Virus record (IMG/VR): IMGVR_UViG_2541047794_000002
Coordinates: 1-51,929 of that record
Strand: one strand, 5' to 3'
DNA length: 51,929 bases
Source: a virus
Taxonomy: Duplodnaviria; Heunggongvirae; Uroviricota; Caudoviricetes
The translations under genes and the position numbers were made by a program. The notes beneath the pieces were generated by a model. That model was not told the origin of the DNA, did not search any database, and saw nothing but the letters and a program-made list of their open reading frames with translations. Positions 31,305 through 31,545 of the stretch are shown here, piece after piece. Numbering within the stretch: position 1 is the first letter of the stretch; the number at the start of each line of letters is the position of its first letter.

Positions 31305-31545
31305 GACAAAAGCCCTCTACCTCCTCTACCTAAAGAAAATAAATATATATTATTCAATATGATAAGCAGGTAGAGGGTCAGGTAGAAGGCAAATAAAAGC
31401 CCTCTACCTCCTCCACCATGATTAAGGTCATTTGTGAGGGGCGGGTAGAGGATGGGTAGAGGGCCCCGAAAGCCCTCTACCCATCTGAAAGCCGCGCCAT
31501 TACTGACCTGAAAGATGATTAGGTAGAGAGGTAGAGGAGGTGCAC
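31305..31545. repeat. Iteron-type replication origin of the element
   Basis: At least nine copies of CCTCTACC / GGTAGAGG in both orientations, around an AT-rich spacer, immediately 3' of the primase gene. Confidence 0.7.

Follow-up and report, generated by a model that had tools for sequence, protein, structure and literature searches.

The intergenic repeat cluster at positions 31305-31545 of the window (by which we mean the whole 51,929-bp stretch of DNA analysed here) is very likely the replication origin of a Gram-negative phage-inducible chromosomal island (PICI) of the EcCICFT073/11capE type. The gene that ends just before it encodes the initiator-helicase of the island, Rep. A Rep-dependent origin beside rep had been proposed in the initial annotation, and this proposal is supported by the position and layout of the cluster, its orthology to the tested EcCICFT073 module, its conservation, its co-variation with the Rep binding domain, and the presence in Rep of a P4-alpha-type binding domain. 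Origins of the EcCICFT073 type have been known from the literature since 2018 and the embedded configuration since 2023, and because of this nothing new follows from the finding itself. It does, however, fix the annotation of the window, in which the intergenic repeats are the island origin and the upstream gene is the initiator-helicase, and it supports the notion of an embedded island that keeps its own replicon. The refinements are incremental: the ‘primase’ domain of Rep is probably inactive, the origin has been exchanged together with the binding domain of Rep, and the position and layout of the origin are equivalent to those of P4 crr.

The 8-mer CCTCTACC is present in eight exact copies in the window, both strands counted, and all eight are located inside 31314-31537 (31314+, 31323+, 31369-, 31401+, 31444-, 31455-, 31474+ and 31530-). 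The chance expectation for the window is 0.78 copies, and none of 100 shuffled sequences reached eight. Three further copies with one mismatch each are found in the same stretch (31381-, CTTCTACC; 31410+, CCTCCACC; 31522-, TCTCTACC), which brings the cluster total to 11 iterons. The “at least nine copies” reported initially is therefore correct once the degenerate copies are counted, whereas the exact copies alone number eight. The repeats, which are 6-8 bp long, occur in both orientations, as had also been noted. With all 11 positions and orientations fixed by the repeat search, the order of the iterons in the window reads ++ [38-bp spacer, 13% GC] -- ++ -- + --, and the members of a pair are spaced by 8-12 bp from start to start. 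The unit AAAAGCCCTCTACCTCCTC(T/C)ACC is present at both 31308 and 31395, and iterons 7, 8 and 9 make the palindrome GGGTAGAGGGC-N7-GCCCTCTACCC. The clustering is also apparent at the level of the shorter TCTACC hexamer, as 10 of its 15 copies in the whole window sit within the 224 bp of the cluster and the other five are scattered.

The AT-rich spacer that the repeats were said to surround is real. A GC content as low as this is found in only 0.3% of the 40-bp windows of the sequence, and the spacer is flanked by pairs of iterons that point inwards. It does not occupy the middle of the array but is found towards its left end, bordered by iterons 2 and 3, with two iterons to its left and nine to its right. 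The cluster as a whole occupies the 286-bp gap (31300-31585) between the rep stop codon at 31299 and the next start codon at 31586, and the first repeat, at 31314, is immediately 3′ of rep (pri-rep). The features of the origin and of the island are listed in Table 1.

Table 1. Coordinates of the origin, of rep and its domains, and of the other island genes (window numbering).
Feature	Position	Strand	Remarks
Tyrosine integrase (int)	25295-26581
AlpA regulator (alpA)	26574-26810
DUF4222 gene, overlaps rep start	29252-29551	+	In every related locus fetched
rep (‘pri-rep’), 583 aa, initiator-helicase	29548-31299	+	Pfam D5_N, DUF5906, Pox_D5
Rep N-terminal domain (residues 1-125), Toprim-like fold, probably not catalytic	29548-29922	+
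Rep C-terminal origin-binding winged-helix domain (residues 487-578)	31006-31281	+	PDB 1ka8, E 2.6e-8, 92 residues
Iterons 1 and 2 (CCTCTACC twice, 9 bp start to start), left of spacer	31314-31330	+	Position and orientation the same in 12/12 E. coli loci
AT-rich spacer, 13% GC, presumed DNA-unwinding element	31331-31368	.	AT-rich in all relatives
Iterons 3 and 4 (GGTAGAGG, GGTAGAAG), right of spacer, facing iterons 1 and 2	31369-31388	-
Iterons 5 and 6 (CCTCTACC, CCTCCACC)	31401-31417	+
Iterons 7 and 8 (GGTAGAGG twice, 11 bp apart)	31444-31462	-
Iteron 9 (CCTCTACC)	31474-31481	+
Invariant non-iteron block GAAAGCCGCGCCATTACTG, 19 nt	31487-31505	+	Identical in 8 of the other loci
Iterons 10 and 11 (GGTAGAGA, GGTAGAGG, 8 bp apart)	31522-31537	-
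Conserved block AAAACTTTTTAAACGAGGGGGTAAAAATAAAA	31554-31585	+	Precedes next gene; right edge of the rep-ori cassette that was exchanged
Downstream replication-zone genes: 85-aa protein (phrog_1231), then ssb-like gene	31586-32246	+
85-aa protein ORF	31586-31843	+
Lambda-E-type capsid protein	32511-33551
gpD-type decoration protein	33561-33902
Small-terminase-like protein	34449-35000
253-aa ORF at island right end, opposite orientation to other genes	35690-36451	-	AbiJ-like C-terminal domain, PADLOC PDLC02347, E 2.2e-21

The initiator binding sites of iteron replicons often double as autoregulatory operators. The genes on the two sides of the cluster are co-oriented, and a conserved block is found right before the second of them, so that the repeats could mainly be an operator array for rep or for the downstream genes, bound by Rep or by another regulator, and have no origin function. 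We consider this very improbable. A scan of 31100-31800 for promoters and terminators gave no match and no sigma-70-like promoter, and the cluster is located 3′ of rep and not 5′ of it. Furthermore, an operator would not need an AT-rich core flanked by inverted repeats, and the orthologous region acted as an origin in a plasmid assay (PMC6092414). The GAGGGGG stretch in AAAACTTTTTAAACGAGGGGGTAAAAATAAAA is read as the ribosome-binding site of the next gene.

Packaging (cos or pac) sites and partition sites are also often arrays of short repeats, and the island encodes a small-terminase-like protein. It is nevertheless exceedingly unlikely that the cluster is a site of this kind, bound by that protein or by a partition protein. 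The cluster and its surroundings contain no lambda-type cosN or cosQ, and no partition gene was found among the island genes scanned. Moreover, across species the repeats change along with the binding domain of Rep and not with the terminase-like gene, which several relatives lack or have in a different form although they have kept the repeats. A one-mismatch cosN at 30687 was rejected as a packaging site: it is inside the rep coding sequence (in the ITGGDPVE stretch) and has no adjacent cosQ. A lambda-type cosN/cosQ pair was not found inside the island (25183-36620), whereas EcCICFT073 reportedly has cos sites. The prophage around the island carries an exact lambda cosN with its flanks (GGTTACGGGGCGGCGACCTCGCGGGTTTT) at 18801-18829.

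Neither a DnaA box, even with two mismatches allowed, nor the IHF consensus nor GATC is present in the origin. The search of the whole island against Rfam (E ≤ 0.1) produced no significant match; a mir-7563 match that falls on the inverted repeats is due to chance, with 27 bits versus a threshold of 80. A 101-aa minus-strand ORF runs over the repeats (31250-31555). We regard it as non-coding because relatives carry single-base indels in it and it has no RefSeq annotation, with no RefSeq gene under the homologous stretch among the 40 genomes listed.

Of 5426 E. coli genomes, 564 contain a match to the intergenic region, and all of the matches are chromosomal and none is on a plasmid. Eleven E. 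coli loci were fetched for comparison, which makes 12 with the window. They include islands at cspD-clpS, tRNA-Pro islands next to yejM, EcCICFT073 at roxA-phoQ, and the capsid-embedded island of MDR_56. In all 11 loci, rep is followed by 10-12 TCTAC(C) cores with positions and orientations corresponding to those in the window, by an AT-rich spacer behind the first iteron pair, and by the invariant blocks GAAAGCCGCGCCATTACTG and AAAACTTTTTAAACGAGGGGGTAAAAATAAAA. In a set of seven non-redundant sequences, the conservation of the six core positions is 0.91-0.96, compared to 0.58-0.66 for the two bases 5′ of the core and 0.75 for all non-core columns (core versus non-core columns, Mann-Whitney p = 4.5e-10). 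Hence, the conserved recognition unit is the hexamer TCTACC, and the longer unit given in the initial annotation stands as its local, 8-mer version. The TCTACC cores are under selective constraint. Also of note is the block GAAAGCCGCGCCATTACTG within the origin, which is invariant despite the divergence of the neighbouring spacers and contains neither a copy of the repeat nor a match to the DnaA or IHF consensus.

The EcCICFT073 counterpart of this region has been studied experimentally. A temperature-sensitive plasmid that carries its rep-ori segment is maintained at the restrictive temperature (Fillol-Salom et al. 2018, PMC6092414). In that system, a rep mutant gave no colonies, and deletion of the origin resulted in significantly fewer colonies (PMC6092414). 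We took the coordinates of EcCICFT073 (our locus L011) from the supplement of the same paper (PMC6092414). The two islands have the same gene order of DUF4222, rep, origin, 85-aa gene and ssb, and the two Rep proteins are 82.5% identical over their full length. The intergenic region measures 286 bp in the window and 288 bp in EcCICFT073, with a nucleotide identity of 63%. Both contain 11 repeats with the TCTACC core, two inward-pointing pairs around an AT-rich spacer, and both conserved blocks. In view of the identity of Rep and of the region and of the similar layout, the cluster is the orthologue of the EcCICFT073 origin. The fourth repeat is inverted, so that the order is ++[AT]-+++--+-- in EcCICFT073 versus ++[AT]--++--+-- in the window, and the bases 5′ of the core are TG or TA instead of CC. 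The N-terminal allele of Rep and the integrase are different, and the insertion site is the roxA(ycfD)-phoQ interval in EcCICFT073 and a prophage capsid gene in the window.

Rep is an initiator-helicase. Its residues 137-578 are 41% identical to residues 321-762 of P4 alpha over 443 aa (E 1e-115), and its residues 225-431 match the helicase of SaPI5 PriRep5 (PDB 7ola, E 2.3e-14). The C-terminal domain matches PDB entry 1ka8, which is the crystal structure of the origin-binding winged helix of P4 alpha. Residues 228-495 match TIGR01613 (‘primase_Cterm, P4 family’) with a score above the cut-off. This model is the source of the name “DNA primase family protein”, and it covers the helicase part.

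The protein had been described as a primase-helicase. The second half of this name is borne out by the P4-alpha-type helicase and the origin-binding domain, but the first half is not. In the alignment of the N-terminal domain, strand 1 is followed by FAGSDAW, with a near-invariant Ala in place of the Toprim catalytic Glu, and strand 3 ends in YRAG instead of DxD; this Toprim register is inferred from the alignment and not from a superposition. No zinc-binding domain is present in Rep. The domain resembles primases in its Toprim fold but appears to be catalytically dead. As it seems to lack the catalytic acidic residues, and as TIGR01613 covers the helicase part, a primase role for Rep is doubtful from its sequence, and the “primase” label should be dropped or qualified. 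The N-terminal domain is also the most variable part of Rep, with 44-51% identity between alleles versus 95% for the helicase in a 10-locus comparison, and domains of this type also occur in fusions with RepA-type (PF13481) helicases.

Binding, melting, helicase loading and the source of the primer can be pictured on the basis of these homologies. The C-terminal winged helix of Rep would bind the TCTACC-core repeats, two of which face another two across the 38-bp spacer. As Rep is expected to be an SF3 hexameric helicase of the P4-alpha type, its hexamers may assemble at iterons 1-2 and 3-4, melt the spacer between them, and load themselves onto the DNA with no need for a host loader. The remaining seven repeats constitute two further inward-pointing units, which would provide for cooperative binding and stronger loading. 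Because there is no DnaA box, initiation should be DnaA-independent. Priming would probably be carried out by the host primase DnaG, since the Toprim-like domain of Rep appears to be catalytically dead.

The element that carries this module (~25183-36620) is an E. coli PICI. Its int, alpA and pri-rep genes are co-oriented, tail genes are absent, the 11.4 kb of DNA contained between 10-bp att repeats is within the ~10-20 kb expected of a PICI, and the gene order matches that of E. coli PICIs such as EcCICFT073. The island encodes a second AlpA-like protein, and the 253-aa ORF with an AbiJ-like domain at its right end is likely an anti-phage accessory gene. Between alpA and rep, the Rfam search gave a match below threshold to the SymR antitoxin RNA (28211-28283, minus strand; 35 bits versus a gathering threshold of 61, E 0.0011). 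The island interrupts gene E, the major capsid gene of a lambdoid prophage, with which it is co-oriented, at codon ~82. The frame of gene E stops after ...GYVKPKH at ~25182 and restarts at 36611, and a 10-bp duplication, AGCCGAAGCA, is found at both junctions (25173-25182 and 36611-36620). Excision would restore gene E. The left junction is found in 173 of 5426 complete E. coli genomes. In E. coli MDR_56 this junction is 100% identical, and the embedded island of that strain shares 98.8% identity with the leftmost 2.9 kb of the element, int included.

A helper-embedded PICI with its “own primase and origin”, 11capE, was published in 2023 (PMC10111431). It is likewise integrated in, and co-oriented with, a lambdoid major capsid gene, but the rep 3′ end and the origin of the island in the window come from another PICI lineage. 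In the one experiment available for an embedded PICI of this type, 11capE excised with an attP:attB ratio near 1 in two of the three repeats and of 1.6-1.9 in the third (PMC10111431). Autonomous replication of the element after excision, which the initial annotation had expected, is predicted purely by homology, and the 11capE ratios near 1 suggest that such replication may be weak. Passive replication within the composite was also described for 11capE (PMC10111431). In addition, the ssb-like gene of the island (31840-32246) has a 4-nt deletion relative to a PICI at cspD-clpS (our locus L001), which splits it into two overlapping frames of 68 and 90 aa. This deletion has probably made a pseudogene of the gene in this copy and may be a sign that the replication zone has undergone some decay. 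The cluster could hence be a bona fide origin by descent that is not used here, in an island that is copied passively with the prophage and whose module is decaying. We find this unlikely. The rep gene is a full-length ORF that matches P4 alpha, 8 of the 11 repeats are perfect, and the host SSB could substitute for that of the island. Furthermore, the rep 3′ end and the origin were recently acquired and are 98-100% identical to L001 over most of their length. A recently acquired cassette that has remained nearly unchanged argues for continued selection.

This acquisition is evident in the identity profile calculated in 100-bp windows. Between 28800 and 30000, the sequence is 98-100% identical to the MDR_56 embedded island. 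From ~30500 to ~31600, it is 98-100% identical to L001, except for two 100-bp stretches at 90% and 77%, and its identity to MDR_56 is only 52-91%, or 52-62% for the origin alone. Beyond 31600, both L001 and MDR_56 are ~97-98% identical to the window. The proteins show the same switch. The N-terminal 150 residues of Rep are 99.3% identical to those of MDR_56, whereas the origin-binding domain is 100% identical to that of L001 and 77.6% identical to that of MDR_56. Judging by this switch of identity from MDR_56 to L001, the rep 3′ end and the origin are one recombinant cassette that was exchanged as a whole. One crossover would be in the helicase core, which is conserved, and that on the right falls in the invariant block 31554-31585 at the right edge of the origin. 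The exchange fits a co-adapted pair of initiator and origin, and physical linkage alone could give the same pattern.

The repeats and the binding domains of Rep vary together. In E. coli, binding domains of the NVA[DE]FSKAM...ITRR type pair with CC-TCTACC repeats and those of the NVNDFGKAM...ITRK type pair with T[GA]-TCTACC repeats, and two loci are intermediate. The co-varying residues align to the third helix of 1ka8 and to the hairpin that follows it, which would be the recognition helix and the wing according to the general plan of winged-helix domains. More divergent Rep homologues are found in Serratia aquatilis (52% identity) and Morganella morganii (51%). They are directly followed by 10-11 repeats that have the window’s orientation pattern around an AT-rich spacer, and these repeats are TGTTCAC and TGTTCAT, as in phage P4 (L014, 3268-3560; L015, 2851-3110). 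Identity to the binding domain of P4 alpha, which binds TGTTCACC, is 45-50% for the Serratia and Morganella domains, compared to 34-35% for the domains of the E. coli PICIs. The co-variation sample consists of few sequences that are phylogenetically structured and physically linked, and the four loci obtained in a genome-contig search with Rep are too few for a formal cross-species co-variation test. We therefore only tentatively propose that the origin and the DNA-binding end of rep form an exchangeable specificity cassette and, linked to this, that the Pri-Rep proteins of E. coli PICIs may have no primase activity. If this were true, a swap of the cassette might help co-resident PICIs to avoid replicon cross-talk or competition, and the hypervariable Toprim-like N-terminal domain could be an interaction or regulatory module.

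Several features of the module are shared with satellite phage P4, the repeats of which we read from the annotated record NC_001609. P4 alpha combines a helicase with an origin-binding winged helix, and its 8-bp repeats are present in both orientations. As in the window, the gene is immediately followed by a repeat cluster that has a ‘++ gap --’ unit and a 9-bp spacing within the pair. This P4 cluster, crr, begins 46 nt after alpha and consists of two 120-bp repeats, each of which reads ++ [35-bp gap] --+, and the 35-bp gap between the inverted repeats has a GC content of 29-31%. The repeat sequence itself differs, as the P4 “ori type 1 repeat” is TGTTCACC (NC_001609), versus CCTCTACC with its TCTACC core in the window. 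A literature search for the P4 repeat sequence retrieved unrelated primer matches only. Another difference is in the N-terminal part of the initiator. P4 alpha has an N-terminal region of ~320 aa that is absent from Rep in the alignment, and Rep contains only a small Toprim-like remnant. This region holds the primase domain of alpha.

The comparison with P4 also suggests a different role for the cluster. The cluster that follows alpha in P4 is required in cis but is not the site annotated as the origin, which is ~4.5 kb away, so that P4 has two separate cis sites (clusters 4291-4590 and 9310-9413). Furthermore, one crr unit, with its 9-bp spacing, 35-bp gap and inverted copies, resembles iterons 1-5 in its repeat spacing. 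The cluster in the window could thus be a crr-like cis enhancer to which Rep binds while initiation takes place at a second cluster elsewhere, both being needed. We regard this as quite improbable. The window has one 224-bp cluster and no second one, and outside it there is no exact copy of CCTCTACC and only the five scattered TCTACC hexamers. In addition, a clone of EcCICFT073 rep with the adjacent putative ori drove plasmid maintenance (PMC6092414).

The Rep-ori systems of staphylococcal pathogenicity islands (SaPIs) provide the structural parallel. SaPI Rep is a self-loading SF3-type helicase, the C-terminal winged helix of which recognises penta- or hexanucleotide iterons (PMC9371898). Directly after rep, SaPIs have 6-12 iterons and an AT-rich region flanked on either side by two or more iterons, which point in opposite directions (PMC9371898). 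Each of these structural points is found in the window, and the helicase domains are homologous, although the helicase core is the only part of the two Rep proteins that aligns and the AT-rich region of the window is off-centre, with two repeats on its left and nine on its right. Binding and melting by SaPI Rep are ATP-independent (PMC9371898). The primase of SaPI1 is encoded by a separate gene upstream of rep, and the putative primase of SaPI5 is fused to Rep (PMC9371898). Neither is a short Toprim-like remnant of the kind found in the window’s Rep.

The classical iteron plasmids (pSC101, R6K, RK2 and P1) have in common with the window that repeated initiator sites adjoin an AT-rich unwinding region. 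Their origins contain 17-22-bp direct repeats and DnaA boxes, and their initiator is not a helicase but recruits the host DnaB. In contrast, the repeats in the window are 6-8 bp long and inverted, no DnaA box accompanies them, and the initiator is itself the helicase.
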